A stretch of DNA of 64,000 nucleotides from Collinsella aerofaciens (GTDB lineage: Bacteria > Actinomycetota > Coriobacteriia > Coriobacteriales > Coriobacteriaceae). The number at the start of each line of letters is the position of its first letter. Position 1 is the first letter of the stretch. Location: NCBI GenBank assembly GCA_008680965.1, contig NAKE01000001.1:2070865-2134864 (forward strand), in the 5' to 3' direction. A program made the translations under genes and the position numbers. This document shows positions 498 to 63,079 of the stretch, piece by piece. Under the pieces are notes generated by a model. It ran no database searches and was not told the origin of the DNA. It saw only the letters and a list, made by a program, of their open reading frames with translations.

Positions 498-2111
<1,614 letters not shown>

Positions 2112-2707: not shown

Positions 2708-2730
2708 CCATCTGCAAGAAAGGCTATACC

Positions 2731-28933: not shown

Positions 28934-29001
28934 AACGAAAGGGGTCCCGAGCAACAGGGGTAAAATGGCTGCTAATGTTGCCAGCTGTTGGGAGATGGAA
29001 G

Positions 29002-30006: not shown

Positions 30007-30161
30007 CGACCGGGCCGCCAAGCGCATCGAACGCGTTCCGGAACCCGGCACTTCGCTCGCCTAAATTGGACATTTTGGCCCTTGAACGGCACTACCGCCA
30101 CGGGGCGCCATCTCGCAAAATTGGATTATTTCCACCGATATTTGCGGGATGGGAGCCAAAA

Positions 30162-33100: not shown

Positions 33101-34529
33101 AATGGTGGTGCCCGTTGCGTACGAGACCGCAGACGGCTGCGGCTGCGCATCGTACGCCGTGATCGGCCAGTCCATTGCGGGCTGGGGCGTTATGTCACCA
33201 GACGCCACGGTACCCCGTGCGGTGCCGTGGCCACAACATTCGGGCTTTTTGGCAACCGTCAACGAGCAACTGCAGCATGTTACTTGGACACGAGGCGCAT
33301 CGGCATTTGCAACGCAGCCCGTGGGTGCCGCAGGCTGTGGCCCGGCATCGTTTAGCGTGAGCAACAACGGCAGGTGCGTGCTCTATGTAGAGAACACCGA
33401 TGGCAAGGTGGGACAAACCTACGACGAAGAAGGCAACCCGGTAGCAGTGATGGGCAAGCACTTCCGCATCTTCGCCAGCACCTTGGCAGGCGATCTGTTC
33501 ACGGAGCCGTTCGTGATGTGCGAGCTGGACCATCCCGTCGATCAGATAACGACATTTTTGACGTCGGGAGGTATGATCTCCACGCTCGCCACGCACATTG
33601 TGAGCGCGGAGAAGAGCGAGGCAGAGCTACACGGCATCGAAGTGCCCTTGATGGCGTGTGCCACTCCGACGGGGGCGGTCGCTACCTCGGGCGCGGTGGT
33701 GCCCGGAGCAGCAGGCGAATCCTTCATGGTCACGGTGCGAAACGACGGCAACACCTTGCTGACCGCCGGCACGATCGATCTGTACCGAGAGGACTCCAGC
33801 CAGCCGTTCTCCAGCGCGTCCATCGGATTCGGAGTGAACGCACGTATGGCATCGATCTACGATCCAGAGCTTGCCGAGGACGCTTCGGCCAACGACATGG
33901 CACACGTGAAGTACGCGCCCGAGACGCTGGGCACACGTTTCGCAACGCACCCGCTGGTTGCCGACAACGGCAACGCCGTGCTGGCACCGGGTTGCACGGC
34001 ACAGTTCCGCATGAGCTTCGCCATCCCCGAGAGTTGGGGCGACGAAGTGGGCAAACGCGTCACGCTGTATGCGAAGGCGCGTGACCTGGTGGCACTCGAT
34101 CCCGTAACGCTCGAAGAAATTCGACCGGGTGCAAACTCGACGCTGGACGCCGTACTGCACGAGCTTCATGTACCCGACGCGGCATGCGAGCGCTCAGAAG
34201 TTCAGGTCGGCGTATGCGACAGCGCGGATACGACAGGACTTCACGACGCCCCGATGACAGCAGACGGCGATGGTGGCTCGAGCGGCGGCGGTACTGACGA
34301 GGGCGACGGCTCCGGAGGAAGCAGCTCCGGCAGTGGCAAGGACCACGGCAATAACAAGCGCTCCGGAAAAGCGGGCGCGCTTGCGGGCACGGGCGATGTC
34401 AACGCTCCCCTTACGGCAGCCGCTGCTGCACTCGCCGCGGCAGGCGCCGGCCTCGTCGCCTACAGCGTCCGCCGCACGGCGCTCGAAACCGACACAGCTA
34501 ATAAGGTCAATTCGGATAGGCCTCGCTAG
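30162..34529 (+). CDS. very large secreted cell-wall-anchored protein (Tat-like signal, C-terminal LAGTG sorting signal); function unknown
   Basis: GGGAG RBS then ATG 30162. N-terminus MLDRRSLLVAGASSLASIMLP. C-terminus has a Gly/Ser-rich spacer, LAGTGD, a hydrophobic helix and RR, which is the LAxTG class-E-sortase type signal of Actinomycetota. No catalytic motif recognised. Confidence 0.75.
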   Translation: MLDRRSLLVAGASSLASIMLPRVPGSKNAFLLPFAPTEAYADEKDPFRVLVLSRTMFGVVVVDVANKNMPVKGAQVTLASRYAAGKQLSATTDDEGTAIFEVAPLSEGYVDEATLLDAYDFNGGISISMAGYRDVEIPLARIQGGTAITAPTRPLSDDEPYFRQLTFDEWDIQYAEATFMALPKNDTTNEQPDTHAFTVQAHLPQGGQATLRINKVTPAAGSSPETVMQIGQIKASASGANNLATFTLEDKFLDAASGLLEEGCKLRFALDYQGKTYTLSSPMAVVTAPAAKAESGSTTIIPTTMDQEITPFDFPAAFPGIGGNKFTCWIPTFPILFDFSFAGYVLFGGGYKPASYMNDSGNPDPEYWKKSPRESGAKQANRYLDEMEGKWNQYKSMSAGSGTDPRNTKLLRHHCTLLFTMDIATQLYGSLAYDWVGKTWGDNNDPAYGNIKALFQVRTDLNWTEQFTLGPVPFFLNVNPWVLAKLALAVGAHTHGSGAAFFKNISLDYSNTSGSFTIQIGLAVTFGAGVAGVASSAVRGAASLTLFIGYEKADGHQLPRLRVGADVDVDVILQFVMFKWTTKAWSGSWPTLLDSWNMSVNNGDQYVLQRSELALGGDTPYTLDARFGSAGNAETGGVPQLIASAIIVTNAELLARAEVKATAVNVAPVVRDWDQAVTRIELEADAESDDTGRIEHFVHALIENDENAAPMYEYTYIGQATNAVADPNANSAGVSEDERGGIKPSSDNVLFSGVLSEAHMKLAMIAGVECLFRIASVCYGDNGRSRLVVHTRANGTWSTPTPVDFPLGFGEGDVERDGIYDYDFDVVEYTDGRGNQDAYVLLVSGERPDGDNTLFDTASTAGILSVVRLRISNDETRVVSHTSWRSISRGRLQEDGYHCLQCPRITAGKTLVDGRLSGAYLHRRGTTAEKALGSEAEVALECFTLWSDVSGDSLTFRQVLRFPQAPSSIELGEPENINGKMVVPVAYETADGCGCASYAVIGQSIAGWGVMSPDATVPRAVPWPQHSGFLATVNEQLQHVTWTRGASAFATQPVGAAGCGPASFSVSNNGRCVLYVENTDGKVGQTYDEEGNPVAVMGKHFRIFASTLAGDLFTEPFVMCELDHPVDQITTFLTSGGMISTLATHIVSAEKSEAELHGIEVPLMACATPTGAVATSGAVVPGAAGESFMVTVRNDGNTLLTAGTIDLYREDSSQPFSSASIGFGVNARMASIYDPELAEDASANDMAHVKYAPETLGTRFATHPLVADNGNAVLAPGCTAQFRMSFAIPESWGDEVGKRVTLYAKARDLVALDPVTLEEIRPGANSTLDAVLHELHVPDAACERSEVQVGVCDSADTTGLHDAPMTADGDGGSSGGGTDEGDGSGGSSSGSGKDHGNNKRSGKAGALAGTGDVNAPLTAAAAALAAAGAGLVAYSVRRTALETDTANKVNSDRPR

Positions 34530-40361: not shown

Positions 40362-40419
40362 GTTAGCAAAACTTGCAAAAGTTAGCAAAACTTGCAAAAA
40401 TTAGCAAAACCTGCAAAGG
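40362..40419 (+). repeat. three tandem 19-20 nt repeats GTTAGCAAAACTTGCAAAA, equal to six GCAAAA tracts phased every 9-10 bp
   Basis: Units at 40362-40380, 40381-40400 and 40401-40419, ending 7 nt before the ATG of the next gene. Embedded in an AT-rich ~160-nt spacer. Confidence 0.9.
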
Positions 40420-40426
40420 AGCTACC

Positions 40427-41521
40427 ATGGAGTACAGCAAGAACCCCTTTACCCCAACATTTGGAAGCGTCCCTCCCTTTCTAGCGGGTCGCGAGCATAT
40501 CCTGCGCGACATCAACCGTGGCTTTATCAACGGCCCAGGAGATCCCAACCTGTCGACCATTTTTACTGGCGCAAGGGGAACGGGCAAGACGGCACTTCTC
40601 TCGCTCCTTTCAGAAACAGCGCTTGAACACGACTGGATCGCAGCAAATGTCTCCGCCATGCCAGGCATGCTCGAAGATATTATCGAGCGAACCAAAGAAG
40701 CCGCAGATAGCTACCTCTCACAGCCTCACGCGCGCATAAACGGTGTTCAAATTGGCCCAGTGGGCATCGATTGGACATACGCTCAAGAGGCTCAGGGCAA
40801 CTGGCGCACGCGCATGAATGGCATCTTTAAGCAACTCGAAAAACATGACATCGGACTTCTCATCACCATCGATGAAGTCACCGTCGATCTCGAAGAAATG
40901 CTTCAATTTGCCTCTGTTTACCAGCACTTTGTACGCGAAGGTAAAAAAGTTGCCCTACTCATGGCAGGACTGCCCTACAAAGTATCGGCGTTGCTACGTA
41001 ACGATTCCGTCTCGTTCCTCAGACGCTCCCAGTATCATCAGCTGGGACGAATCACTGATGTTGAGATTGCAAATGCATTTCGTAAAACCATTGAAGCAGG
41101 AGGACGCTCAATCACGCCAGAAGCGCTCGAGGATGCCGTGAAGGCCGTCGACGGATTTCCCTACATGATGCAGCTCGTCGGATACCGCACTTGGGATGTT
41201 TCGGAAAACTCGCCCCAAATCAGTACATCCGATGTCCAGCAGGGTTCTCTGCTTGCCCGTATGGAGCTGCGCGATCGTATTCTCGAAACGACCTATCAGG
41301 AGCTTTCCGATAAAGACATTGAGTTTTTGCTCGCGATGCTGCCCGATTCTGGCCCCAGCAGGGTCTCGGAGATAGCCAAACGCATGGGCGTCGCCAGCAA
41401 CTACGCAAGCCAATACAAACGCCGCCTCCTCGAGGACGGCGTTATCGGGGAACGTGGACGTGGCCTCGTCGGCTTCGACATCCCCGCGTTCAGGGAATTC
41501 TTGAACGAGAAGGCGTTTTAG
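40427..41521 (+). CDS. AAA/STAND-like ATP-binding protein with C-terminal winged-helix domain (Arch_ATPase/AAA_16-like)
   Basis: FTPTFGSVPPFLAGRE, Walker A GARGTGKTAL, Walker B LLITIDEV, and a C-terminal wHTH (VSEIAKRMGVASNYASQYKRRLLEDGVI). AT-richer than its neighbours. Confidence 0.65.
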   Translation: MEYSKNPFTPTFGSVPPFLAGREHILRDINRGFINGPGDPNLSTIFTGARGTGKTALLSLLSETALEHDWIAANVSAMPGMLEDIIERTKEAADSYLSQPHARINGVQIGPVGIDWTYAQEAQGNWRTRMNGIFKQLEKHDIGLLITIDEVTVDLEEMLQFASVYQHFVREGKKVALLMAGLPYKVSALLRNDSVSFLRRSQYHQLGRITDVEIANAFRKTIEAGGRSITPEALEDAVKAVDGFPYMMQLVGYRTWDVSENSPQISTSDVQQGSLLARMELRDRILETTYQELSDKDIEFLLAMLPDSGPSRVSEIAKRMGVASNYASQYKRRLLEDGVIGERGRGLVGFDIPAFREFLNEKAF

Positions 41522-41629: not shown

Positions 41630-42160
41630 TTAGGCGAGCTTGCGGGCGAGCTCGCGCACCTCTTCCAACTTAGGCGAGGAGGCCATGCTGTCGCGCTCGG
41701 TCATGCCGCTAATGGTGACAATGCCCTGGTCCTCCCACTTGCAGTACGCGCAGGTTGACTTGTACATGGCAATCGCCGCATCATAGACACCCTCGCTGTG
41801 GCTATCGAGCAAAAGGGCCGTCTTGGTGAACGGGAAACCCGTGGCACCGAAGGCGTACAGGCGGTCGATGGCGGTCTTTTCCTGCGCAGTGATATCAAAC
41901 CAGTAGATAGGCGAAGCGAAGACAACCATGTCGGTGTCTTTCAGCGACTCAATCACGTTGGCCATGTCATCCTTCTGCACGCAGACGCCCTCATGGGCGA
42001 AGCAGTACTGGCATCCCAAGCAGCCGGCGATCTTCTTGCTGGCAACGCGGATGACCTCGACCGTATGGCCGCCCTCACGCGCGGTCTCGGCAAACGCCTC
42101 GACCATGGTATCGGTATTGGCGCCCTTACGCGGGCTGCCGCTCAATACAACGATATTCAT
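41630..42160 (-). CDS. flavodoxin-like fold NAD(P)H-dependent FMN reductase / iron-sulfur flavoprotein family protein
   Basis: MNIVVLSGSPRKGANT followed by the CLGCQYC cysteine cluster. Confidence 0.75.
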   Translation of the reverse strand: MNIVVLSGSPRKGANTDTMVEAFAETAREGGHTVEVIRVASKKIAGCLGCQYCFAHEGVCVQKDDMANVIESLKDTDMVVFASPIYWFDITAQEKTAIDRLYAFGATGFPFTKTALLLDSHSEGVYDAAIAMYKSTCAYCKWEDQGIVTISGMTERDSMASSPKLEEVRELARKLA

Positions 42161-42364: not shown

Positions 42365-42916
42365 TCAACTACGGGGATCGTGACGAGCCGATACCGCCCG
42401 CATGCCCCCTTCGGAATAGGCGCTGAGCAGCTCCTGAGCGTGGGCAAACTCGGGCCCTCGCCTCCAACCGAGCAGGCGGTTGACCGCGAGATTTCCCTGG
42501 ACGTTGTGGACGAAGAGCAGATAGGCGTCCTCGCGCGAAAGCCCAGTCTCCTCCATGATCGAGGGAACCATCTGCTCGGCGCCGCGCTCGACGACGCGCT
42601 GTGCCACCCGGGCGTACGCGTCGTCATCCGAGTAGAGCAGATAATAGTCATCGTTTGCCGGCGGACGCTGGCAGAGGGCACCCGCCTCCGTTCCCTCGAG
42701 CGGCGGCACCGCCGCCAAGGCCTCGTCGATAAGCGCGTCGAGCAGGGCGAACTTGTCCTCGTAGTGCAGATAGAACGTGCCACGGTTGATATCGGCGCGG
42801 CGGCAGATATCCGCTACCGTCATCTTCGCGAAGCCGACCTCGGCCAGCAGCGCGAAGAACGCCTCCCGTATGACCGAGAGTGTATAGCGTCGGCGACGAT
42901 CGATCTTCCCCGCTTC
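42365..42916 (-). CDS. TetR/AcrR family transcriptional regulator
   Basis: HTH FAKMTVADICRRADINRGTFYLHY. Start at MEAGKIDRRR (ATG 42914-42916). Divergent from the SIR2-like operon. Confidence 0.85.
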   Translation of the reverse strand, partial: EAGKIDRRRRYTLSVIREAFFALLAEVGFAKMTVADICRRADINRGTFYLHYEDKFALLDALIDEALAAVPPLEGTEAGALCQRPPANDDYYLLYSDDDAYARVAQRVVERGAEQMVPSIMEETGLSREDAYLLFVHNVQGNLAVNRLLGWRRGPEFAHAQELLSAYSEGGMRAVSARHDPRS

Positions 42917-43022
42917 CATTACCCCTCCAATTGCAACGCTCGACAATGCCCGGCAAACGCTCGTTTATCGACAGCAGGCCGAAGCTGTTCATTGCTCTTA
43001 AGCAAATCGACATGGATACTTT

Positions 43023-43042
43023 TTATAGACACCTGTTTATAA
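43023..43042. promoter_or_regulatory. candidate TetR operator TTATAGACA-CC-TGTTTATAA
   Basis: 8/9 inverted repeat in the TetR/SIR2-like divergent intergenic region. An almost identical motif recurs next to the decayed TetR copy near 46050-46070. Confidence 0.45.
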
Positions 43043-43062
43043 TAGCTGAAAGAAGGTATCCA

Positions 43063-44028
43063 GTGACCCTGTACGAGCAGCTCGTTATCGAGCTCACCAA
43101 CCAATCGTTTTCCCTTCAGGCCGCCTACCGCAGCGGCGGCACGCCCTATGAGCTGAGTGACCGCGAGCCCGAGCCCTACGACCAGCAAATCAGGGACTTC
43201 GCCCGCATGATCGAGGAAGCCGATTGCGTGCTGGTGGGCGGGGCCTCTGGGCTCTCCGCGGCGGGCGGCGGCGACTTCTATTACGAGGACAACGCAACCT
43301 ATCGCAGGCATTTCGGCAAATTCGCCGAGCGCTACGGTTTCAAGGGCGCTTTCGAGGGGTCGTTCTACCGCTGGCCCACCGCCGAGGCGCGCTGGGGATA
43401 CCTCGCCACCTTCCTCGACACCACGCTCAACGCCCCGCTGCGCAAGCCCTACAAGGACCTCGACGCCATTCTCGCCGAGAAGGATTTCTTCGTGCTCACC
43501 ACCAACCAGGACACGCAGTTTGTGAAGCTCTATCCCTGGGAGAAAGTGGCAGAGATCCAAGGCGACCACCGCTTCTTTCAGTGCTCCCGCTGTTGCACCG
43601 ACGCGGTGTGGGATGCGGTCGAGCCGGTCTCCAACATGGTAGAGGCCATGGGAGGCGGCCTTGAGGTTCCGACAGAGCTCGTGCCGCGCTGCCCGCACTG
43701 CGGGGCAGAGGCGTTCCCCTGGGTTCGCGGCTACGGCAACTTCCTGCAGGGCGAACTCTACGAGGAGCAGTACCGCAAGGTGTCCGACTGGCTCGACGCG
43801 CACGCACGGCAGAGGATCCTCTTCCTCGAGCTGGGTGTGGGCCGCATGACGCCCGCGTTTATCCAGGAGCCGTTCTGGGCCCTCACGGCGCAGTTACCGC
43901 AGGCCAGCTACATCGCCGTAAACAACAAGACGCAGTTTCTCCCCCGCGCGATCGAGGATCGGGGGCTCGCCGTTCGCGCCGACATCGCCGACGTGCTCGC
44001 CGACGTGCGCAAGACGCTGGGGAGGTAG
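43063..44028 (+). CDS. SIR2-like (sirtuin-fold) protein, paralog A, with Zn-ribbon cysteines
   Basis: GTG 43063, aligned with the ATG of the decayed copy at 46089. Gly-rich NAD loop VLVGGASGLSAAGG, TTNQD (TQNID-like), CSRCC...CPHCG, and LELGVG. Confidence 0.7.
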   Translation: MTLYEQLVIELTNQSFSLQAAYRSGGTPYELSDREPEPYDQQIRDFARMIEEADCVLVGGASGLSAAGGGDFYYEDNATYRRHFGKFAERYGFKGAFEGSFYRWPTAEARWGYLATFLDTTLNAPLRKPYKDLDAILAEKDFFVLTTNQDTQFVKLYPWEKVAEIQGDHRFFQCSRCCTDAVWDAVEPVSNMVEAMGGGLEVPTELVPRCPHCGAEAFPWVRGYGNFLQGELYEEQYRKVSDWLDAHARQRILFLELGVGRMTPAFIQEPFWALTAQLPQASYIAVNNKTQFLPRAIEDRGLAVRADIADVLADVRKTLGR

Positions 44029-44031
44029 CGC

Positions 44032-44730
44032 ATGGAGACGGCGAAAGCAGTTCGCATAGGCAGGGCGCTAGCCGAAGCGGATCTTGTCATCATCGGCGCT
44101 AGCAACGGACTCGACATGGCGGAGGGGCTCAACCTTTTCTGCGCCGATGCTCATTTCCAAGAGGCGTACGGGGACCTCGCCCAGGCAGACGGCATCGGCT
44201 GCATACTGCAGGGGCTCGCTTCCCCGGATGCCAGCGTGCGACGCCGATGGGCCGAGCGGTTCCATCAAAAGGAGTATCTCGAATATGAGCCCGGCTCGCT
44301 CATGAACGGGCTGCGGCGTCTTACGGAGCACGCCGACACCTTCGTGGTCACATGCAACATCGACGGGCACTTCGCGCGCGCCGGGTTCGACGAGGAGCGC
44401 GTGCTCGAAACGGAGGGGAGCATACGCACGTCGATCGACGAGCGGCGTCTCGCCCATCCAGACGCCCTCGCCACGGCCCAGCTCGAGGAGCTCGAGCGCC
44501 TTGTGCAAGCCCATCGCAACGGCAGGGTCGCCATCCTCGAACTTGGCGTGGGACTGCGCAACGGCATCATAAAGCACATGCTCGCCCAGATCGCGAACGT
44601 CTGCGAGCACGCCACCTACATCGTGTTCAACTACAGCCAGGCTATGGCGCCCGATGCATCGTGCGAGACGATTCTCGTTGACGGCGATATGGCCCCGGAT
44701 TTCGAGGAGATCGCCCGATGCCACCCCTAG
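44032..44730 (+). CDS. SIR2-like protein, paralog B (no Zn-ribbon cysteines)
   Basis: Starts 4 nt after the paralog A stop. Motifs VIIGASNGLDMAEG, VVTCNIDGHF and ILELGVG. Confidence 0.65.
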   Translation: METAKAVRIGRALAEADLVIIGASNGLDMAEGLNLFCADAHFQEAYGDLAQADGIGCILQGLASPDASVRRRWAERFHQKEYLEYEPGSLMNGLRRLTEHADTFVVTCNIDGHFARAGFDEERVLETEGSIRTSIDERRLAHPDALATAQLEELERLVQAHRNGRVAILELGVGLRNGIIKHMLAQIANVCEHATYIVFNYSQAMAPDASCETILVDGDMAPDFEEIARCHP

Positions 44731-45566
44731 AAAGAGAAGCGCGTAGGCTTCGAAGCCTTATCGACGATGCCGACGCCATCATCGTCGGCATCGGCTCGGG
44801 CATGTCGAGCGCCGCCGGGTTCAACCATTACAACCGCGCGGGCATGGCGCGCGCAGGAATGGCGGACTGGCAGCAAGCCTTTGGCTTCAAGAGCCTTTTC
44901 GACGGCTTCTACCACCTCTACCCCAGCCTCGAGCAGCAATGGGCCTACTACGCGCGATATATCGATTTCATGCTGCGCGAGCCGACCTCGCAGCCCTATC
45001 TCGACCTACGGTCCCTCATCGGCCATAAGGATTACTTCATCCTGAGCACCAATGTAGACACCCAAGTCGAGAAGACGTTTCCCGACGAGAGAACCTGTAA
45101 CTATCAGGGAAGCTTCGCGCACCTTCAGTGCAAGCAGCCATGCTGTGACGAGCTCTTCGACGCGAGCCCCTACGTCGAACGCATGCTCGCGGGCATGGCG
45201 GGGTTCGAGGTCCTCAGCGAGGATATCCCCCGATGCCCGCATTGCGGCTGGCAGCTTGTGCCGTGGGTGCGCGACGACACGTTTCTGCAGGGTGCGGCCT
45301 GGCGCGAGAGCCTCGGACGATACGAGCGCTTCGTGTGCGAGCACAGCGATCACCGCGTGCTGTTGTTGGAGCTCGGCGTAGGCGAGATGACCCCCGGCAT
45401 CATCACGCTCCCGTTCTGGAGCATGACCGCGAAGCTGCCGGATGCGCACCTTTTGAGCGTAAACATCTCGGGCGACTCGGCTCCGTTGCAGCTTGGAAGC
45501 AAGGCAGAGGCGATCCAGGCCGATTTGGGCGCCCTGCTCTCGGTGGCGCGGGCAGGTGGCGAGTAA
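44718..45566 (+). CDS. SIR2-like protein, paralog C, with Zn-ribbon cysteines
   Basis: Overlaps paralog B by 13 nt. Motifs IIVGIGSGMSSAAG, LSTNVDTQV, CKQPCC...CPHCG and LLELGVG. Confidence 0.7.
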   Translation: MPPLEREARRLRSLIDDADAIIVGIGSGMSSAAGFNHYNRAGMARAGMADWQQAFGFKSLFDGFYHLYPSLEQQWAYYARYIDFMLREPTSQPYLDLRSLIGHKDYFILSTNVDTQVEKTFPDERTCNYQGSFAHLQCKQPCCDELFDASPYVERMLAGMAGFEVLSEDIPRCPHCGWQLVPWVRDDTFLQGAAWRESLGRYERFVCEHSDHRVLLLELGVGEMTPGIITLPFWSMTAKLPDAHLLSVNISGDSAPLQLGSKAEAIQADLGALLSVARAGGE

Positions 45567-45601
45567 CGCGGAGCGGTAGACGCGCAATGAGGTTTTAGCC
45601 G

Positions 45602-45631
45602 CAGCCTCCGAACGAGAGGGCTCGGAGGCTG
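45602..45631. terminator. 10-bp-stem hairpin between the SIR2-like operon and the decayed TetR copy
   Basis: CAGCCTCCGA-N10-TCGGAGGCTG. No clear T-run. Confidence 0.4.
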
Positions 45632-45659
45632 GTATTCCTGAATCGCAGGTCACGATGGG

Positions 45660-45945
45660 TTATCGGAATCGTGAAGAGCGGATACCGCCAGTAAGCCCCC
45701 TTCGGAATAGGCGTTGAGCAGCTCCTGGGCATGGGCGAACTCGGGGCCTCGTCGATAAGCGCATCGAGCAGCGCGTACTTATCCTCGCAATGCAGATAGA
45801 ACGTTCCCCGGTTGATCTCGGCGCGGCGGCAGATGTCCGCCACCGTCATCTTCGCGAAGCCGACCTCGGCCAGCAGCGCGAAGAACGCCTCCTGTATGAC
45901 CGAGAGGGTGTAGCGCCGCCGGCGGTCGATCTTGGTTTCTCCCAT
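45660..45945 (-). pseudogene. decayed TetR paralog with an internal deletion and frame change
   Basis: MGETKIDRRRRYTLSVIQEAFFALLAEVGFAKMTVADICRRAEINRGTFYLHCEDKYALLDALIDEA matches the intact TetR. The sequence then jumps out of frame to the equivalent of ...GPEFAHAQELL(N/S)AYSEGG..., so roughly the middle third is missing. Confidence 0.8.
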
Positions 45946-46088
45946 CGCCTCTCCAATCTGAGTCGTTTGACAATGTCCAGTAGCTGTTCGTTTATCGACA
46001 GGTGCACGCGTTTGTTCATTGCCCCTGCGAAAATCAACAAGGATACTGTTTATAGACACCTGTTTTTTATAGCTGAAAGGGAGCACGG

Positions 46089-46289
46089 ATGACCCTGTGC
46101 GAGAAGCTCGGCATCGGGCTTGTCAGCCGATCGTTTTCCCATCGGGCCGTCTATCGAAACGGCGGCACGTCATACGATTTGGGCGATTGCGAGCCTGCTG
46201 CTTGCAAGCAAGATATCGAGGTTTTTGCCCGCAAGGTGGGGGAGGCTGATTGCGTGTTTACGGGAGAGGCAGGTAGGCAGGCGTTATGA
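46089..46289 (+). pseudogene. truncated, diverged copy of SIR2-like paralog A (first ~65 codons only)
   Basis: MTLCEKLGIGLVSRSFSHRAVYRNGGTSYDLGDCEPAACKQDIEVFARKVGEADCVFTGEAG aligns with VTLYEQLVIELTNQSFSLQAAYRSGGTPYELSDREPEPYDQQIRDFARMIEEADCVLVGGASG. Homology ends where the AT-richer cassette begins. Confidence 0.75.
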
Positions 46290-46975
46290 GCATCTGCATC
46301 AAAAATCAGATTCAGAATATGAATATCGTCATCGGCTGCACGGTGGGGTGTCCATATTGCTATGCCCGTAACAATGTGAAACGTTGGCATATGATTGACG
46401 ACTTCGCTGATCCTGCGTTCTTCCCGAGCAAGCTCAAGATGATGGAAAAGAAACGCCCGCAGAACTTTCTCCTTACCGGCATGAGCGATCTCTCCGGGTG
46501 GAAGCTGGAATGGCGAGACGAGGTATTTGCAAAGATCCATGAGAATCCACAGCATCAGTTCCTGTTCCTGACCAAGAGACCCGATTTGCTGGATTTAGAT
46601 ACCGACCTGGAAAACGCATGGTTCGGCGTTACGGTGACGAGGAAAGCGGAGCTGTGGCGTATCGACGCCCTTCGGAAAAACGTCAAAGCAAATCACTTCT
46701 TCGTTACTTTTGAGCCGCTATTCGACGATCCCGGTACGGTCGACCTTTCCGGAATCAACTGGATCGTCGTCGGTACCATGACCGGGGCGCAGAGCAGGAA
46801 GGTTCATACGGAACCGGAGTGGGCATGGTCTTTGACGGACCAGGCTCACGCGCTTGGCATTCCAATGTTTATGAAGGAAGACCTCGTCTCTGTCATAGGG
46901 GACGAAAACATGATTCAGGAATTGCCGGAAGAATTCGAAAGAGTGCTGGAGGTGCAGAGAACATGGCGGAAGTGA
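46286..46975 (+). CDS. DUF5131 / phage Gp37-Gp68 family three-Cys-motif protein
   Basis: N-terminal CTVGCPYC (CxxxCxxC), WFGVTV and INWIVVG blocks, ~229 aa. AT-richer than flanking DNA. Confidence 0.65.
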   Translation: MSICIKNQIQNMNIVIGCTVGCPYCYARNNVKRWHMIDDFADPAFFPSKLKMMEKKRPQNFLLTGMSDLSGWKLEWRDEVFAKIHENPQHQFLFLTKRPDLLDLDTDLENAWFGVTVTRKAELWRIDALRKNVKANHFFVTFEPLFDDPGTVDLSGINWIVVGTMTGAQSRKVHTEPEWAWSLTDQAHALGIPMFMKEDLVSVIGDENMIQELPEEFERVLEVQRTWRK

Positions 46976-47904
46976 TTGATGGAATCCTCATCAATGAGGT
47001 GGAAGCAAAGAACATCATGACCAAGTCCAGCCTGCCGGTAGGCGGCTACTCGGTCAATCCCTATGTGGGCTGCACGCATGCCTGCAAGTATTGCTATGCC
47101 TCCTTTATGAAGCGCTTTACCGGACACAAGGAGGAATGGGGCACCTTTCTTGATGTGAAGCATTGGCCGGAAATCAAGAATCCGAAGAAATACGCTGGAC
47201 AGCGGGTGGTTATCGGTTCTGTGACGGATGGCTACAATCCACAGGAGGAGCGATTCGGGAATACCAGGAAACTCCTGGAGCAGCTGATTGGCAGCGATGC
47301 AGATATTCTGATCTGCACAAAGTCCGATCTTGTGGTACGGGATATCGATCTGCTGAAGAGGCTTGGACGAGTGACCGTTTCATGGTCGATCAACACGCTG
47401 GATGAGAACTTCAAGAACGATATGGACTCCGCGTCGAGCATCGAGCGTCGTATCGCTGCTATGAAGCAGGTGTATGACGAAGGTATCCGTACGGTCTGCT
47501 TCGTGTCCCCGGTATTTCCCGGCATCACGGATTTTGAGATGATTTTTGAGCGAGTAAAAGATCGGTGCGATTTGTTTTGGCTCGAAAATCTCAATCTTCG
47601 GGGTGGTTTCAAAAAAGCGATCCTGGATTATATCGCCGAGAAACATCCCAATCTCGTACCGCTTTACGATGAGATCTATAACAAGCGCAACCGTAGCTAT
47701 TTTGAAGCGCTTGAAGTAAAAGCCGAGGAAATGGCCAAGAAGTACGATTGCCCCTTTGTGGACAACGAAATGCCTTATGGCAGAGTCCCCCAGGGGCATC
47801 CGGTGATCGTGGACTACTTCTATCACGAGGAAGTCCGAGGGTCAGATAATAGCGGAAAAGAAATCGTTAAACGGAAACCGACGACGATTCGCTCGAGCGA
47901 TTAG
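46963..47904 (+). CDS. radical SAM protein of the SPL/DNA-photolyase-like (COG1533-type) group
   Basis: ATG 46963 overlaps the upstream stop by 13 nt. SVNPYVGCTHACKYCYA (CxxxCxxC); TIM-barrel-length body. Confidence 0.65.
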   Translation: MAEVIDGILINEVEAKNIMTKSSLPVGGYSVNPYVGCTHACKYCYASFMKRFTGHKEEWGTFLDVKHWPEIKNPKKYAGQRVVIGSVTDGYNPQEERFGNTRKLLEQLIGSDADILICTKSDLVVRDIDLLKRLGRVTVSWSINTLDENFKNDMDSASSIERRIAAMKQVYDEGIRTVCFVSPVFPGITDFEMIFERVKDRCDLFWLENLNLRGGFKKAILDYIAEKHPNLVPLYDEIYNKRNRSYFEALEVKAEEMAKKYDCPFVDNEMPYGRVPQGHPVIVDYFYHEEVRGSDNSGKEIVKRKPTTIRSSD

Positions 47905-48099
47905 CGTCCACGCGTGGCTTCTGCCGATTGGCGCAACGGGCGACAGATTAAGGGATCGCTCGGGCGGATGATCCCGCTGCAGTACAGGCGGTCGCTCAAT
48001 TTAGCGGCATGAGCGTTTTCGCACGGAAAACCAGTATCCCCTGTGCCGAGTTTAATCGTAGCGAATACAATGGGCACTGAGCATCAATCGAAAGTAGTC

Positions 48100-48816
48100 A
48101 AGAGCCTTTTCGACGGCTTCTACCACCTCTACCCCAGCCTCGAGCAGCAATGGGCATACTACGCGCGATATATCGACTTCATGCTGCGCGAGCCGACCTC
48201 GCAGCCCTATCTCGACCTACGGTCCCTCATCGGCCATAAGGATTACTTCATCCTGAGCACCAATGTAGACACCCAAGTCGAGAAGACGTTTCCCGACGAG
48301 AGAACCTGTAACTATCAGGGAAGCTTCGCGCACCTTCAGTGCAAGCAGCCATGCTGTGACGAGCTCTTCGACGCGAGCCCCTACGTCGAACGCATGCTCG
48401 CGGGCATGGCGGGGTTCGAGGTCCTCAGCGAGGATATCCCCCGATGCCCGCATTGCGGCTGGCAGCTTGTGCCGTGGGTGCGCGACGACACGTTTCTGCA
48501 GGGTGCGGCCTGGCGCGAGAGCCTCGGACGATACGAGCGCTTCGTGTGCGAGCACAGCGATCACCGCGTGCTGTTGTTGGAGCTCGGCGTAGGCGAGATG
48601 ACCCCCGGCATCATCACGCTCCCGTTCTGGAGCATGACCGCGAAGCTGCCGGATGCGCACCTTTTGAGCGTAAACATCTCGGGCGACTCGGCTCCGTTGC
48701 AGCTTGGAAGCAAGGCAGAGGCGATCCAGGCCGATTTGGGCGCCCTGCTCTCGGCGGCGCGGACGGGCGACGAGCAGCGCAGTTCATCGCGCCGTGTTTC
48801 ATGCGTGGACGCTTAA
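48100..48816 (+). pseudogene. 5'-truncated near-identical copy of SIR2-like paralog C
   Basis: 48100-~48766 matches 44887-~45553 with only a few substitutions seen by eye. The Gly-rich NAD-binding N-terminus is missing. The C-terminal ~15 codons and the downstream sequence differ. Confidence 0.8.
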
Positions 48817-50059: not shown

Positions 50060-53000
50060 ATGATTACGCTGGACAATCTTCGCGACGCACTTAGGGCTCT
50101 GTGCTACGAGCCGTCGGGCGACGGCACCGTTTATCAGAAATCCTGGGAAGAGACCAGCGCGCAAATCACGGTCGATTTTTCCAAGAAACGCATCGGCTAC
50201 CCGAAAGACCTGGGGTTCAAGGTCAACAAAGACACAACTTGTAACTTCTCCGATAACGAGAACTTCGTCGTACTCGCCTGCGTAACCATGCTCCTCGACA
50301 AAGGATATCGCCCCGAATCACTCGAGCTGGAGCGCGAATGGGCCCTTGGGCACGAACAAAAGAGCGGCCGCGCTGATATCTGCATTAATGACGAGAGGGG
50401 CGACACACTCGCAATCGTCGAATGCAAGACCCCTGGAACCGAGTTCAAAAACGAATTCAAGAACATGCAGTCAGACGGAGGGCAACTCCTCTCCTATTGG
50501 CAACAAGAGCGCGCGACTCGCTGGTTGGTACTCTTTGCATGCGATTTCATCAACAACGAAATTGTGCCAGACCAGGTTTCAATTAACTGCAGCGATGACG
50601 AGAACTTCATCGCGCTCGCCAAACGCGATGACACCATTGCGCTCTACCGCGACGCCCATACAGTGGAACAGCTCCATCAAGTTTGGACGGAAACGTACAA
50701 CCAACAAGTCGAGGGAAACATCCTCTTTGGCGATAGGTCGACGGCATACCACCCGATGGTTCCTCCCCTTCTCAAGAAGGACCTTGTCGACTTCAGGGCC
50801 GAAGACAGCATCGTCAACCGCTTCGAGGAAATCCTCCGCCACAACAACGTCTCCGATAAAGAGAACGCCTTCAATCGCCTTATTGCGCTCTTTATCGCGA
50901 AGCTCCAAGACGAGCTCTCGAAAATGCCAACCCAGGAGATTGAGTTCCAATACCGCCAAGGACGCGACACCTACGAAACGCTCCAGGACAGACTCCAGAG
51001 ACTCCACTCAGACGGCATGAGAAAGCTCATGCGGGAAGAGGTCCTGTACGTTCCCAACAACTACGCCGAAAACCTCATAAGCAACTATACGGGCCAGCAC
51101 CGCAAGAAGCTCATCGAGGAGCTGAACGGCACGCTGCGCAAGCTCAAGTTCTATACCAACAATGACTTTGCGTTCAAAGACGTCCACAACGAGGAACTCT
51201 TTCTTCAGAACGGCAAGGTACTCGTAGAGACGGTGCAACTTCTACAGCCGTATCGCATCGTAGGAACTCAAGACATTCAATTCTTGGGCGACCTCTTCGA
51301 ACAGCTCCTTAATCAGGGCTTTAAGCAAAACGAGGGCCAATTCTTCACACCTGTGCCCATCACCCGTTTTATTTGGAAGTCACTCCCACTCGACAGCATC
51401 GTGCAGGACGAGGCTGGTGCCGTACACTATCCACGCGTTATCGATTACGCCTGTGGCGCGGGGCACTTTCTCACAGAAGGATTCGAAGAAATCTCCGACG
51501 CCGCATGCCAATATGATCCGACCATAGAGGATGACCTCGGAGACGCCGACTGGGTCAGAGACAATCTCGTCGGCATCGAGAAGGACTATCGACTCGCTCG
51601 CGTTTCCAAGGTCTCGTTCTACATGCATGGCGCAGGGCAGAGCAACGTGGTCTTCGGCGACGGACTTGAAAATTATCCCGACAAGGGAATCGACAGCCGA
51701 ACCGACAGGGGACGCTTCGACATTCTTGTCGCCAATCCCCCGTACTCTGTAGCGGCCTTCAAACCGCATCTCAAGCTTCACAACAACGAACTCAAAGTGC
51801 TGGAAACCATCAGCGATAGCGGCTCGGAAATCGAGACCCTCTTTGTCGAGCGTGCGGCACAGCTTGTTCGGCCCGGAGGCTACGCCGCCATCGTCCTCCC
51901 CACCTCGATCCTCGACAAGAGCACGAGCTCGAGTTTCATGGCCGCACGCGATGTGCTTTTGAGCTCCTTCGAGATCGTCTCCATCGCCAGGTTTGGATCA
52001 GGCACATTCGCGGCCACAGGAACAAACGTCGCAATTATGTTCCTACGTCGCTTTGACGAGATCCCGCCCCGCAATGCGAACGCACTTGATTTCGTTGACG
52101 CTGTTTTTGAGCGCAGGAAGCTCACTGGCTGGAGAGACGAAAGCGCTTTCAACGCTTATCTCGGCACAATTAATGTAGACGGAGATACTTACCGGGCTTT
52201 TCTCGCAGGAGAGGCTAACTGGAACGAATGGGCAAACACTCGCCACTTCAGCGTTTATTGCCATCTTTTCGAATCATCGAAGGAGCTCAAGGCCCTTCGG
52301 AAGAGCAAGACTTGGAAGGCGGCCGACAAGAACTCACGGCTCAAAGCAGAGAGCGAGCTGTTCTATCGCCATGCGCACAAGGAAGAGCGCAAACGCCTGC
52401 GCGTTTGGGGTCTCGTCTGCGGCGAACAGACGCTCATCATCAACTCACCTAACACGACCAAGGAAATCGCCTCTTTCCTTGGCTACAAATGGAGCAATCG
52501 CAAAGGCAACGAGGGGATACAGCCCATCGATGGTGAGGGCGTGCTCTATTCGGACAACGAATCGGACGACACGAACTCGCTAAGCGGCATCATCAGAGCA
52601 TGGTTCTCCGGCGAGCAGGTTGAGCCCGGCGACCTTGCCCAGTACTACTACTATGCCAAGACCGCCGATTTCATTGACTTTGATGCCGATAAGTTCGACG
52701 AGACTCTTACGATTCCCCGCTCTTTCTACAAGCCCCGCTCGTTCGCCCAGGGCACCGTAGTCAAGACGCTTAGAGACATCACATCCTACGTTACCAACAG
52801 CGTGGCCCAGAGTTCCATCACCACCGACACTTACGTAACAACGGAAAACATGGTCAAGGACCGTGGCGGCATAACCGCCTATGGCGGAGAGCTTCCGGCA
52901 AGTGATGGCACCGCATACAAGAAGGGAGACACGCTCGTCTCCAATATTCGCCCCTATCTGCAGAAGATTTGGCTCGCAGACCGCGATGGGGCGTGCTCCA

Positions 53001-53905
53001 AGGATGTTTTGGTATTCCGAAGCATAAATACCGACAGCCTATTGCCCGAGTTTCTCCATCTGCTCCTGTGGCAGAAGGACTTCTTCGACTACGATATGTC
53101 CACCTTCACGGGAACCGGCAGGCCTCGCGGAGACAAGGATGAGCTGCTCAAATACCCCATCCCAGTCCCGACGCTCTCCGAGCAGAGAGCCCTCATCGAC
53201 GATTTCAATCGCTTAACAGATGAAATCAATAGCAAACGACAGCAAATCGCCGCTCTCAAGGAGAGCGTCAAATCACGGTTTGTCGAGGTATTTGGCGATC
53301 CGGTCGATGGTAAAAAATGGCCTTTCGTTAGGCTTGAAGACCTCTGTACCAAGTTGGGTTCCGGAGCAACACCACGAGGCGGCAAAACGGCATACAAGGC
53401 CGAAGGTGTTCCGCTGGTCAGAAGTATGAATGTTCACAACGGTCGTTTCGTGTGGAAGGACCTTGCTTGTATTGATGATGAACAAGCCGCAAAACTAGAA
53501 GGCGTCACGCTGATGAAGGGTGACGTGCTTCTGAATATTACTGGCGCTTCGGTTGCTCGTTCATGTCTTTTGCCGGATGAATTGGCTGGTGGACGTGTTA
53601 ATCAGCATGTCTCAATTGTCAGAGTCGACCAAAAACGGATGCTACCGGTGCTATTGAACACGGTGCTGATCAGTGATTCGTATCAGAGACTCCTGCTAAA
53701 CGGCTCAAGAGCGGCTGGAGCAACAAGGGAGGCAATTACCAAAGAAGATCTAAAGAGAATGACGGTTCCCTTGCCTCCCCTTGAGCTTCAGCAAGAGTTC
53801 GCCGACTTCGTCGCCCAGGTCGACAAATCGCAATTTGCACTCGAGCAAGAGGTCGACGCCCTTTCCGCAGAGCGCGACGCCCTTCTAGACCGATTCCTCG
53901 CGTGA
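50060..53905 (+). CDS. single-chain restriction-modification-specificity enzyme (type IIB/IIG-like): N-terminal PD-(D/E)xK nuclease, N6-adenine methyltransferase, HsdS-like two-TRD module
   Basis: Nuclease-like GRADICINDERGDTLAIVECK; MTase motif I VIDYACGAGHFL and motif IV LVANPPYS. The C-terminal ~400 aa carry two TRDs separated by the conserved helix LSEQRALIDDFNRLTDEINSKRQQIAALKESVKSRFVEVFG and end in LELQQEFADFVAQVDKSQFALEQE. No separate hsdR, hsdM or hsdS gene is present. Confidence 0.75.
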   Translation: MITLDNLRDALRALCYEPSGDGTVYQKSWEETSAQITVDFSKKRIGYPKDLGFKVNKDTTCNFSDNENFVVLACVTMLLDKGYRPESLELEREWALGHEQKSGRADICINDERGDTLAIVECKTPGTEFKNEFKNMQSDGGQLLSYWQQERATRWLVLFACDFINNEIVPDQVSINCSDDENFIALAKRDDTIALYRDAHTVEQLHQVWTETYNQQVEGNILFGDRSTAYHPMVPPLLKKDLVDFRAEDSIVNRFEEILRHNNVSDKENAFNRLIALFIAKLQDELSKMPTQEIEFQYRQGRDTYETLQDRLQRLHSDGMRKLMREEVLYVPNNYAENLISNYTGQHRKKLIEELNGTLRKLKFYTNNDFAFKDVHNEELFLQNGKVLVETVQLLQPYRIVGTQDIQFLGDLFEQLLNQGFKQNEGQFFTPVPITRFIWKSLPLDSIVQDEAGAVHYPRVIDYACGAGHFLTEGFEEISDAACQYDPTIEDDLGDADWVRDNLVGIEKDYRLARVSKVSFYMHGAGQSNVVFGDGLENYPDKGIDSRTDRGRFDILVANPPYSVAAFKPHLKLHNNELKVLETISDSGSEIETLFVERAAQLVRPGGYAAIVLPTSILDKSTSSSFMAARDVLLSSFEIVSIARFGSGTFAATGTNVAIMFLRRFDEIPPRNANALDFVDAVFERRKLTGWRDESAFNAYLGTINVDGDTYRAFLAGEANWNEWANTRHFSVYCHLFESSKELKALRKSKTWKAADKNSRLKAESELFYRHAHKEERKRLRVWGLVCGEQTLIINSPNTTKEIASFLGYKWSNRKGNEGIQPIDGEGVLYSDNESDDTNSLSGIIRAWFSGEQVEPGDLAQYYYYAKTADFIDFDADKFDETLTIPRSFYKPRSFAQGTVVKTLRDITSYVTNSVAQSSITTDTYVTTENMVKDRGGITAYGGELPASDGTAYKKGDTLVSNIRPYLQKIWLADRDGACSKDVLVFRSINTDSLLPEFLHLLLWQKDFFDYDMSTFTGTGRPRGDKDELLKYPIPVPTLSEQRALIDDFNRLTDEINSKRQQIAALKESVKSRFVEVFGDPVDGKKWPFVRLEDLCTKLGSGATPRGGKTAYKAEGVPLVRSMNVHNGRFVWKDLACIDDEQAAKLEGVTLMKGDVLLNITGASVARSCLLPDELAGGRVNQHVSIVRVDQKRMLPVLLNTVLISDSYQRLLLNGSRAAGATREAITKEDLKRMTVPLPPLELQQEFADFVAQVDKSQFALEQEVDALSAERDALLDRFLA

Positions 53906-53942
53906 TACGTTCCTCCCATCCATATCGGGATGGGAGGAACTG

Positions 53943-54935
53943 ATGCACACGACGATCGAAATAGCAAACGCGGTTCTCACAAAAATGCAGGCACTCGTTA
54001 GCGGCGAAGTGCTTTCGTATCTCGAGAGCGTCCTTATGAGCGAACTCAGGGGCATCGAACTTGAAGTGAACGCGCTCAGCAATGTCGAAGACGAGGCCTC
54101 AAAGTACATGGAGCGATTCCTCGCAGCCAAAACCATCGAGGGATGCTCGCCTAAGACCATCAGGTACTACAAGGCCACACTTACAAGGGCGCTCGAAGCA
54201 ATCAAAAAACCAATTGTCCGGATTAGTTCAGATGACTTACGAACATACCTGAGCGAATATCCCATGGGTAATAACGCAGGGAGCATCACCGTCGACAACG
54301 TCAGGCGCATCCTGTCGTCATTCTTCTCTTGGCTTGAAGACGAGAACCATATACTCAAAAGCCCTGCACGACGCATTAAAAAGATTCGCTCAAAGAGAAC
54401 GGTCAAGTCCGTATATTCTGATGAAGAACTTATAGCCCTCACAGACGCCTGTTCTTGCAAGAGGGATCTGGCAATCATCAACCTTCTTAGTTCAACAGGG
54501 ATGAGAATAGGCGAACTCGTCTCGCTCAATCGAGAAGACGTTGATCTAAATCGGCGAGAGTGCATTGTACTCGGAAAGGGCAACAAAGAGAGAGTCGTCT
54601 ATTTTGATGCGACTACAAAGCTGCACCTAAACAACTACCTGCAAGAACGCAGCGATAACGTCGCCGCGCTATTCTGTAGTCTCACAAAGCCGAGTTCTAG
54701 GCTGCAAGTAAGCGGAGTCGAGCTCCGCCTTCGCTCCTTGGGAACAAAAGCAGGCGTCAAACACGTCCACCCACATAAGTTCAGGAGAACGCTGGCCACC
54801 AAAGCAATTGGAAAAGGAATGCCCATCGAGCAGGTGCAGAAGCTGCTTGGCCATCAAAAGATTGATACAACGTTGATGTACGCAATGGTCGATCAGGACA
54901 ACGTAAGGGACTCTCATAGAAGGTATATCTGTTAA
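53943..54935 (+). CDS. tyrosine site-specific recombinase (XerC/D-integrase family)
   Basis: TGMRIGELVSL (Arg), HPHKFRRTLAT (HxxR) and LLGHQKIDTTLMYA (His..Tyr). Lies between the active and spare TRD segments. Confidence 0.85.
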   Translation: MHTTIEIANAVLTKMQALVSGEVLSYLESVLMSELRGIELEVNALSNVEDEASKYMERFLAAKTIEGCSPKTIRYYKATLTRALEAIKKPIVRISSDDLRTYLSEYPMGNNAGSITVDNVRRILSSFFSWLEDENHILKSPARRIKKIRSKRTVKSVYSDEELIALTDACSCKRDLAIINLLSSTGMRIGELVSLNREDVDLNRRECIVLGKGNKERVVYFDATTKLHLNNYLQERSDNVAALFCSLTKPSSRLQVSGVELRLRSLGTKAGVKHVHPHKFRRTLATKAIGKGMPIEQVQKLLGHQKIDTTLMYAMVDQDNVRDSHRRYIC

Positions 54936-62575: not shown

Positions 62576-62586
62576 CCTGCAGATAG

Positions 62587-62641
62587 CAAAACCTTCACGG
62601 TTTTAGGGGCGGACTTGCGCAAGCGACTCTGCCCTATTTTT
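62587..62641 (+). terminator. terminator module copy 1 (small hairpin plus GGGCGGA...TCTGCCC stem plus TATTTTT) right after the Abi_2 gene
   Basis: AAAACC-TTCAC-GGTTTT, then AGGGGCGGACTTGCGCAAGCGACTCTGCCCTATTTTT. Confidence 0.6.
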
Positions 62642-62720
62642 ATATTCACTCACTATAGGAGACGGGTGATACCTGGGTCAATGACAGAACTGAGAAGCCC
62701 GGAATAATGGAGCCAGTTAG

Positions 62721-62773
62721 AAACCCTCGGGTTTGCGGGGCGGGATCGTGAGAGCGATTCTGCCCTATTTTTT
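62721..62773 (+). terminator. terminator module copy 2 (same architecture, ~134 nt downstream of copy 1)
   Basis: AAACC-CTCG-GGTTT, then GGGCGGGATCG-TGAGAG-CGATTCTGCCC (11 bp including 2 G-U pairs), then TATTTTTT. Confidence 0.65.
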
Positions 62774-63079
62774 CCTCCGTCTGCCCCAAACCAAGTAGTT
62801 CGAAGATAGCCTGTAGGTGTCCTCCTGGGCGCCTTTTATTTTCAGGGAATCGGCCGCTTCATGAACGAGCGACCGGCTTGACCTAGATCGAACCGCCTTC
62901 ATCTCCGCCTAGGCGCCGGCGATCAACATCGTAAATCCGCGCGTGCTACAATGCGGGCACCAGAGATGAAAACACAGTCCCCGTCGGGTAGTCGTGGGCG
63001 TGCGGGAGTCCGCATCAGTAACCTGCCTCCTTGGTTGTCCCTTCTCTGCATGGTCATCTACATAAAGGAGGAACCAACC

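Follow-up and report, generated by a model that had tools for sequence, protein, structure and literature searches.

What is encoded by three consecutive sirtuin-like genes that lack the catalytic histidine of sirtuins and lie beside a TetR-type regulator? The question is raised by a locus at 42365–45566 of a 64,000-nucleotide (nt) stretch of Collinsella aerofaciens DNA (GenBank assembly GCA_008680965.1, contig NAKE01000001.1, positions 2,070,865 to 2,134,864 of the forward strand). The whole stretch is called the window below; coordinates are those of the window unless another locus is named. On balance we favour the explanation that the locus is a mobile, TetR-repressed cassette encoding an NAD+-consuming ADP-ribosyl-transfer module of class M-type sirtuins (SirTM), in which the products of the first two sirtuin-like genes, A and B, form a complex. 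The cassette is laid out as follows; A-type and E-type are defined further on.

42365..42919, minus strand: TetR1, TetR-family repressor, 184 amino acids (aa) from ATG 42919; the open reading frame (ORF) reaches TTG 42946
42920..43062: putative divergent promoter/operator region, with a conserved box, a near-palindrome, TATAAT and a Shine-Dalgarno (SD) sequence
43063..44028, plus strand: A, A-type SirTM, 321 aa, start GTG 43063, stop TAG
44032..44730, plus strand: B, E-type sirtuin-fold paralog, 232 aa, start ATG 44032
44718..45566, plus strand: C, second Q-type SirTM, 282 aa, start ATG 44718

The TetR1 gene is divergent from A, B and C, which follow one another on the plus strand. A first-pass annotation had described three tightly coupled sirtuin-like paralogs beside a divergent TetR gene, and this description is borne out by the similarities among the proteins (A and C, 37% identity, E = 1e-69; B and C, E = 1e-14; A and B, E = 2e-8), by the gene junctions and by the match of TetR1 to PF00440 (TetR_N, E = 1.2e-11). 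As judged from these alignments A, B and C are true paralogs, with a similarity far beyond chance. The 13-nt overlap of B and C (44718–44730) stands as first described, with GAGGAG 9 nt 5′ of the C start, whereas the gap between A and B, given before as 4 nt, is really 3 nt (stop 44028, start 44032), with GGGAGG just 5′ of the B start. The first GTG of the A ORF, at 42880, is not the real start; A is placed at GTG 43063 because this ATG/GTG column is kept in divergent cassettes and in a duplicated copy downstream. All the motifs that had been listed are present: the Gly-rich loops (GGASGLS at residue 59 of A, GASNGL at 22 of B, GIGSGMS at 24 of C), the T-x-N-x-D blocks (TTNQD with N148 in A, TCNID with N109 in B, STNVD with N112 in C), and paired CxxC motifs in A and C and not in B. 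An Rfam scan of 41–49 kb found nothing, and thus no riboswitch is placed there.

The absence of the histidine from A and C finds its explanation in the SirTM class. Gln or Glu had been read by eye at the catalytic-His position, and alignment to the Streptococcus pyogenes SirTM structure (SpySirTM, 5a3a) by HMMER and MAFFT confirms this reading: the SpySirTM column (Gln137; Q147 of the chain) is aligned with Q166 of A (EIQGD), E128 of B (ETEGS) and Q130 of C (NYQGS). The motif QG in place of HG is therefore present in A and C and not in B. Searches of solved structures match A (by phmmer) and C to 5a3a over their whole length (E = 2.5e-37 and 7.7e-38, respectively), and both also match the fungal macro-SirTM fusion 8rsn. 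The catalytic set is N148/Q166/R222 in A and N112/Q130/R185 in C, the asparagines aligning with Asn118 and the arginines with Arg192 of SpySirTM. A further has a Zn ribbon (C174/C177..C210/C213) and an N-terminal extension of about 40 aa; C has a Zn ribbon as well and belongs to a TTNVD-like motif class. By their sequences, A and C are full-length SirTM homologs. This class is defined by QG in place of the otherwise universal HG, and its members are robust mono-ADP-ribosyltransferases without deacylase activity; SpySirTM needs Asn118, Gln137 and Arg192, and its Q137H variant is inactive (Rack et al. 2015, PMC4518038). Since His-to-Gln is the published hallmark of SirTM, the missing histidine of A and C is, by analogy, a known signature of an active enzyme class and not an anomaly. 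For A and C the exchange is accordingly no sign of the partial inactivity that had been considered possible; the activity predicted for both is NAD+-dependent mono-ADP-ribosyl transfer and not deacylation.

B alone breaks this pattern, having Glu at the Gln position, no arginine and no Zn ribbon. It matches 5a3a in two pieces with the Zn module skipped (E = 2.3e-9); N109 is kept, E126-x-E128-G is found at the HG position, and an equivalent of Arg192 is missing because the Zn module is deleted. The AlphaFold2 model of B is of high confidence (predicted local distance difference test, pLDDT, 90.3; predicted template modelling score, pTM, 0.88), and the best Foldseek match is again 5a3a (E = 1.2e-12, template modelling score, TM, 0.77), ahead of canonical sirtuins. 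Of the checks suggested at first pass, the profile searches found no match in Pfam or PADLOC for A, B or C (no Pfam SIR2 at E ≤ 0.1), and structure prediction gave a B model closest to SpySirTM.

An exhaustive HMMER search of 1.84 billion cluster representatives yielded only 370 relatives of B, the E-type genes amounting to about 370 clusters at 50% identity. The top relatives form a coherent group with invariant SNG..EG, T[SC]N, E-x-E-G, LELGxG, N and K. We define the E-type by an SNG-x3-EG loop, T[SC]N, E-x-E-G and LELGxG-x-N-x3-K in a protein encoded beside, or fused to, an A-type protein with TTNQD and [IL]QG; B has all of these features. The family spans Actinomycetota, Bacillota and Bacteroidota. 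Many E-type proteins retain the Zn ribbon, including the closest non-Collinsella relatives of B (41–50% identity), and others have lost it like B. The WVR arginine occurs in no E-type protein, and those with a ribbon have Asp or Glu in that stretch. B therefore has a sirtuin fold and belongs to a separate E-type subfamily that is itself conserved. As the NAD-loop, TxN and LELGxG motifs common to SirTM are conserved, B plausibly binds NAD+ or ADP-ribose, with an active-site chemistry plausibly unlike that of SirTM.

The partner of the E-type protein is the ortholog of A. The best relatives of A are the C-terminal half of an E-A fusion, P0212 (58%), and the partners of E-type genes (38–61%), all of the TTNQD/[IL]QG motif class. 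An A-type and an E-type gene are adjacent or fused in every independent context examined. The pair is adjacent or overlapping in Staphylococcus succinus, Macrococcus, a Lachnospiraceae-labelled metagenome-assembled genome (MAG), Bacteroides and a Phocaeicola/Bacteroides conjugative element, as well as on Paenibacillus and Mesobacillus megaplasmids, on Lactobacillaceae plasmids and on three further contigs (L186 and L187 among them). Natural single-chain E-A fusions also occur (P0136, P0142, P0212 and P0287), and the linker of P0212 corresponds to the N-terminal extension of A. The hetero-oligomer proposed from the tight coupling of the genes thus gains independent support from the constant adjacency and the fusions.

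How far the full cassette is conserved depends on the lineage. The homolog search and the genome-contig scan made with B were dominated by near-identical Collinsella sequences and report within-genus synteny only; distant contexts came from a profile of distant E-types, exact-protein look-ups, a metagenome scan seeded with P0123-type sequences, and a plasmid collection. B is 94–100% identical to loci in 80 Collinsella assemblies. The order TetR-A-B-C is found in 80 Collinsella genome loci and most of 80 metagenome loci, down to identities of 74% for A, 40% for B and 42% for C, and in Collinsella it comes after parE/parC and a flavin mononucleotide (FMN) reductase gene in essentially all loci. 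There are at least three different genomic contexts for it: a cassette about 89% identical lies in a different context in a MAG labelled Ellagibacter, and a third context is provided by locus L108, described below. More diverged relatives are metagenomic, for instance L105/L106 (A 82–84%, B 71–72%, C 80–82%) and L101–L104 (TetR 69%, A 74–77%, B 40–43% and with a Zn ribbon, C 42–43%). Pairwise ratios of nonsynonymous to synonymous substitution rates (dN/dS) against the window are low, 0.12–0.15 for A, 0.18–0.24 for B and 0.11–0.19 for C, so all three genes are maintained under purifying selection; of 171 loci, 165 retain an unbroken B ORF (≥95% coverage). The trio, whose conservation as a unit the first-pass annotation proposed to check, is conserved as such in Coriobacteriia-like lineages only; elsewhere the conserved unit is the A-type/E-type pair. 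The phage collection gave only weak or partial matches, and no link to phages is drawn for this reason.

The regulator travels with the pair. The combination of an orthologous TetR gene with such a pair is found repeatedly, namely in Coriobacteriia, Lactobacillaceae plasmids, Bacillales, Staphylococcaceae and integrative conjugative elements (ICEs) of Bacteroidota. The distant orthologs of TetR1 share 29–38% identity with it (E = 1e-34 to 1e-40), with conserved blocks along the whole alignment. They are divergent from the pair in L101–L107, in Lactobacillaceae plasmids and in L185–L187; the gene is upstream and divergent in L. plantarum plasmids (with IS30 in between), Limosilactobacillus, L186 and L187; in L. 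brevis it lies downstream of the pair and converges on it. Between TetR1 and A, a near-palindrome at 43023–43042, TTATAGACA-cc-TGTTTATAA, i.e. TTATAGACAccTGTTTATAA, has half-sites that agree at 8 of 9 positions. It overlaps a TATAAT at 43038–43043 and is contained in the conserved intergenic block GATACTGTTTATAGACACCTGTTTATAAT. A second conserved box, CGTTTATCGACAG..CTGTTCATTGC, lies at 42962–42996, and the SD sequence GAAAGAAGG lies at 43048–43056, 5′ of A. Both boxes are kept in the 87%-identical second copy and among cassettes whose TetR proteins are 69–95% identical. The near-palindrome reported at first pass is thus real and footprinted across cassettes, while its role as the TetR1 operator, shared with the conserved box, is a putative one, called by manual reading and phylogenetic footprint.

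The genes that accompany the pair in relatives are informative about its possible function. Macrodomains, the defining partners of known SirTM, are missing here: tblastn of the window finds none, and no Macro Pfam domain occurs among the neighbours in any context examined. Families GcvH and BPL_LplA_LipB were likewise not found among called neighbours within ±10 kb, nor in the other contexts examined. The sole macrodomain in any fetched locus is a tblastn match in L108, a related metagenomic contig on which the gene of a canonical SirTM (312 aa, TTNVD..CTQGD) and, overlapping it, a macrodomain gene (278 aa), at 2020–3745, lie directly upstream of a 90%-identical TetR-A-B-C. This arrangement hints that an eraser could come from elsewhere in such genomes.

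Other partners recur instead. On the Paenibacillus and Mesobacillus megaplasmids (L180, 1680–6226; L182, 4986–10036) the A-type gene and a Zn-ribbon E-type gene are found with genes for an HD protein, a nicotinate phosphoribosyltransferase (PncB) and an isochorismatase-family hydrolase, which, from its family, may be a PncA-like nicotinamidase. An isochorismatase gene also adjoins the pair in Macrococcus, with OYE/Flavodoxin_2 flavin oxidoreductases nearby. The NAD-salvage genes that accompany the pair suggest that NAD+ is turned over and nicotinamide released by the system. Lactobacillaceae plasmids, some of them conjugative or mobilizable (L181, 4992–7870; L183, 2199–6170), encode the orthologous TetR, an A-type protein and an E-type protein of about 440 aa with a cupin-like domain fused at its C-terminus (PF06172, E = 2.9e-4; annotated as cupin).

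In Bacteroidota an HD-superfamily protein of ~190 aa is encoded right after the E-type gene, the two genes overlapping by 4 nt (L092, 7675–8268; L097, 6678–7253), and Fic comes next. An HD-like protein is fused to C-type SirTM in Actinomycetota-like relatives: the closest non-Collinsella relative of C, P0255, is an HD-domain-SirTM fusion (45%), and the L101/L102 ortholog of C still bears the HD-like domain (L101, 6731–7380). The Collinsella cassette itself is without HD, cupin or Pnc genes, the HD domain having been lost from it. The HD-like query has no sequence match in Pfam, NCBIfam or the PDB; its family counts 512 relatives, some of which are named HD domain protein by their sources. Its AlphaFold2 model (pLDDT 94) bears a weak fold likeness to YpgQ, phosphodiesterases (PDEs) and Legionella SdeD/DupA (best E = 0.045, TM ~0.5), and any role for it deduced from this model is speculative.

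Taken with the cassette, these observations suggest how an ADP-ribosyl-transfer module could work. TetR1 would bind the conserved palindromic boxes between the divergent genes and be released by a small ligand, and translational coupling would then yield A, B and C in fixed proportion. A would act as the catalytic mono-ADP-ribosyltransferase in complex with B, which may contribute a further site for nucleotides, or else a surface for regulation or for binding the substrate. The N-terminal extension of A, being the linker of natural E-A fusions, is a likely docking element. C would be a second transferase, with its own target or one in the same pathway, and in relatives it bears the HD phosphohydrolase domain. 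Reversal, if any, would be supplied in trans, because no eraser macrodomain is encoded here. PncB and isochorismatase for NAD salvage, HD, cupin, Fic and flavin oxidoreductases in relatives favour a response to stress or xenobiotics over phage defence.

The cassette resembles several described systems in part. With the SirTM of S. aureus and S. pyogenes and the fungal Mfs1 (Rack et al. 2015, PMC4518038; 5a3a, 8rsn), A and C share the fold, QG, the Asn118 and Arg192 equivalents, the Zn ribbon and LE[IL]GVG. However, the linked Zn-macrodomain, GcvH-L and LplA2 that define known SirTM operons are not found here; in their place A has an E-type sirtuin-fold paralog as partner, together with a dedicated TetR, and it falls in a separate TTNQD/[IL]QG clade. 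The minimal SirTM/Zn-Macro pairs and Macro-SirTM fusions (Ariza et al. 2024, PMC11490716) are likewise small mobile SirTM modules, yet the partner in our case is another sirtuin fold (and an HD hydrolase in relatives), not a macrodomain eraser. A third likeness is to the SidE-type logic of Legionella, in which ADP-ribosylation by a transferase is followed by phosphodiester cleavage by a PDE, since relatives have an HD/PDE-superfamily protein either after the transferase pair or fused to it. Nevertheless, this likeness is weak (E ≥ 0.045, TM ~0.5), the transferases have unrelated folds, and the HD gene is absent from the window.

Other explanations have to be weighed against an ADP-ribosyl-transfer module. 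The first-pass annotation pointed to SIR2 effectors of defence systems, and by this account the paralogs would be NADases that deplete NAD+ on infection, in the style of Thoeris, DSR, SIR2-HerA or SIR2-pAgo, leading to phage resistance or abortive infection. The cassette shares with such effectors (ThsA, DSR1/2, SIR2-HerA, SIR2-pAgo) the sirtuin fold, the NAD+ substrate and a position close to defence islands and on mobile elements. It borders a variable island with a Type IIG restriction-modification enzyme, an integrase and Abi_2 (NERD, RES or AAA_13 in other strains), the module is carried by ICEs and plasmids and lies near Fic/Doc genes, and one protein of a radical SAM pair inserted downstream matches PADLOC candidate models. 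Yet PADLOC matches none of A, B and C, which lack the catalytic His, are under TetR control and belong to a subfamily separate from the SIR2_2/SIRim sirtuins of known defence systems. Neither HerA, pAgo, TIR nor any other sensor partner is encoded alongside, the neighbours being TetR, FMN reductase and an AAA ATPase, and A is strongly conserved (74–77% where B and C are at 40–43%; dN/dS ~0.13). To our knowledge, a dedicated co-inherited TetR repressor is not a feature of described defence systems. We regard a defence role as improbable. Still less probable is that B, perhaps with C, is a degenerate non-functional duplicate and the operon effectively a single SirTM gene with decaying paralogs. 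B does lack the Zn ribbon, Gln and Arg that SpySirTM activity requires, and duplication and decay have occurred nearby. This notion is largely refuted by the dN/dS of B and its intact ORF in nearly all loci, by E-x-E-G and NAD-binding motifs that are invariant over three phyla, and by the obligate pairing or fusion of B with the A-type; a catalytically inert, structural B would still agree with an ADP-ribosyl-transfer complex. Ordinary CobB-like NAD-dependent protein deacylases with an intact His, the outcome that would have overturned the first-pass description, can practically be dismissed. Weak NCBIfam matches to PRK00481 deacylase models (E ~1e-3) and the source annotation of homologs as NAD-dependent protein deacetylase speak for them, but the CobB matches reach 18 bits against cutoffs of 243–252, Pfam SIR2 is not matched, the histidine is missing in A, B and C, and SirTM enzymes are without deacylase activity, the restored histidine of Q137H being inactivating.

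A different acceptor deserves more attention, although we consider it rather unlikely. The A-B complex could use NAD+ to attach ADP-ribose to a small nucleophile, the same compound that TetR binds as ligand, and so detoxify xenobiotics or modify metabolites; in relatives the HD phosphodiesterase would trim the adduct, the cupin bind the substrate, and PncA/PncB recycle nicotinamide. The co-inheritance of TetR orthologs with the pair across phyla agrees with this, as do the fusion of the E-type to a cupin-like domain on plasmids of food Lactobacillaceae, the occurrence of HD, PncB and isochorismatase in one gene string, and neighbouring flavin oxidoreductases (FMN_red at 41630–42160 here; OYE/Flavodoxin_2 in Macrococcus). 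However, the only characterised SirTM acts on protein, the HD fold matches are weak, and HD, cupin and Pnc genes are not part of the Collinsella cassette itself; we know of no established sirtuin-fold ADP-ribosyltransferase for small molecules. More tentatively than the ADP-ribosyl-transfer module as such, we also put forward that TetR, the A-type SirTM and the E-type protein constitute an undescribed two-component sirtuin system, joining a Glu-type fold with a Gln-type ADP-ribosyltransferase, directed at a target other than GcvH-L and having HD, cupin, Fic and PncA/PncB as optional partners; this is possible rather than probable. The target could be a small molecule that TetR binds as well, or else a protein, the HD enzyme then acting on the attached ADP-ribose.

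Several points weigh against the favoured ADP-ribosyl-transfer module. For A and C, activity is deduced from enzymes that share 30–40% identity with them and whose only known target, GcvH-L, appears to be absent here. As the defining macrodomain partner is missing, the chemistry may differ and be NAD hydrolysis or transfer to a small-molecule acceptor. B could be without catalytic activity or, conversely, be the main enzyme. In L. brevis the A-type protein is without Zn-ribbon cysteines, which shows plasticity. An inverted-repeat finder (seed 6) and a sigma-70 promoter scan of the intergenic region did not flag the boxes, so operator function can be proposed only as a candidate. The trio may also be a lineage-specific elaboration, since C is outside the conserved core beyond Coriobacteriia-like lineages.

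The enzyme class and its His-to-Gln switch are already known. Literature searches (SirTM paralogs, SirTM with HD, Sir2 with HD and NAPRTase, the radical SAM mobile pair) found no description of the remainder, and the first-pass remark that no system of this layout has been described holds to that extent. Three features are apparently undescribed: the layout without a macrodomain, the E-type subfamily, and the TetR/A/E module together with the fusions and accessory genes that belong to it. SirTM are the only sirtuins known as pure ADP-ribosyltransferases, and GcvH-L is their sole known target. In the cassette, a SirTM lineage without a macrodomain comes with an obligate partner that has a sirtuin fold and an altered active site (Glu for Gln, no Arg), and with a dedicated regulator predicted to respond to a small molecule. 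The lineage is widespread in abundant gut bacteria (Collinsella, Bacteroides/Phocaeicola) and food bacteria (Lactobacillaceae), including their mobile elements. If the two-component proposal is true, a macrodomain-independent branch of bacterial ADP-ribosylation exists on plasmids and ICEs of gut and food bacteria. The compact, cloneable four-gene system and the natural fusions make it feasible to ask what else SirTM modify and what a Glu-type sirtuin does. Genes of this kind, likely mis-annotated as "NAD-dependent deacetylases" or "hypothetical", can be renamed accordingly.

Directly downstream of the cassette lies a broken second copy (45595–48816):

45595..45945, minus strand: TetR2 remnant, repressor gene of the second copy with an inactivating internal deletion of 265 bp relative to the intact 186-aa gene of L001
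46089..46289, plus strand: A′ remnant, 66 aa, 5′ end of a second A gene; its stop overlaps the next gene start by 4 nt
46286..46975 and 46996..47904, plus strand: radical SAM mobile pair, A and B, filling the interior of the second cassette copy
48043..48816, plus strand: C′ remnant, 3′ part of a second C gene (C aa ~57–282), NAD-loop N-terminus missing

The TetR2 remnant is about 87% identical to the 5′ part of TetR1 and the intergenic region. A tblastn search with A aa 1–61 matches the A′ region at 52–59% identity, and C aa 48–282 match at about 91% identity at the equivalent place of many loci. The radical SAM pair scores above the cutoffs of both models (TIGR04471, 410 bits, cutoff 355; TIGR04470, 594 bits, cutoff 410). 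Because it has replaced the interior of the copy, it stands behind a second TetR-type promoter; the insert is found in some Collinsella genomes and is missing from others. Pair protein A is the one that matches the PADLOC candidate models PDC-M41B/M30B. On the Bacteroidota conjugative element (L097–L099, 1425–2968) a homologous pair, 51% and 66% identical, is separated from the A/E pair by about 1 kb, and the two modules thus co-occur in two phyla.

The operon does lie at the edge of a variable, defence-rich island, as first described. At 50060–54935 and 61613–63547 the window encodes the Type IIG enzyme (PADLOC E = 7.9e-258), a tyrosine integrase, a transposase-like helix-turn-helix protein, Abi_2 and DUF2992; this is the position at which NERD, RES or AAA_13 genes are found in other strains. 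On the other side, the FMN reductase gene (41630–42160, FMN_red) was considered as a cassette member and rejected, because it is absent from the other genomic contexts of the cassette. Farther off, a 1487-aa ORF (30066–34529) with coding-like GC content at third codon positions and no match in Pfam or PADLOC is preceded by the gene of a LuxR/GerE-type regulator (28819–30006). Between parC and the FMN reductase gene, 40373–41521 encodes a P-loop ATPase with a C-terminal winged-helix domain; this slot is variable, and other strains have either nothing there or an AAA_14/DUF4143 gene on the opposite strand.

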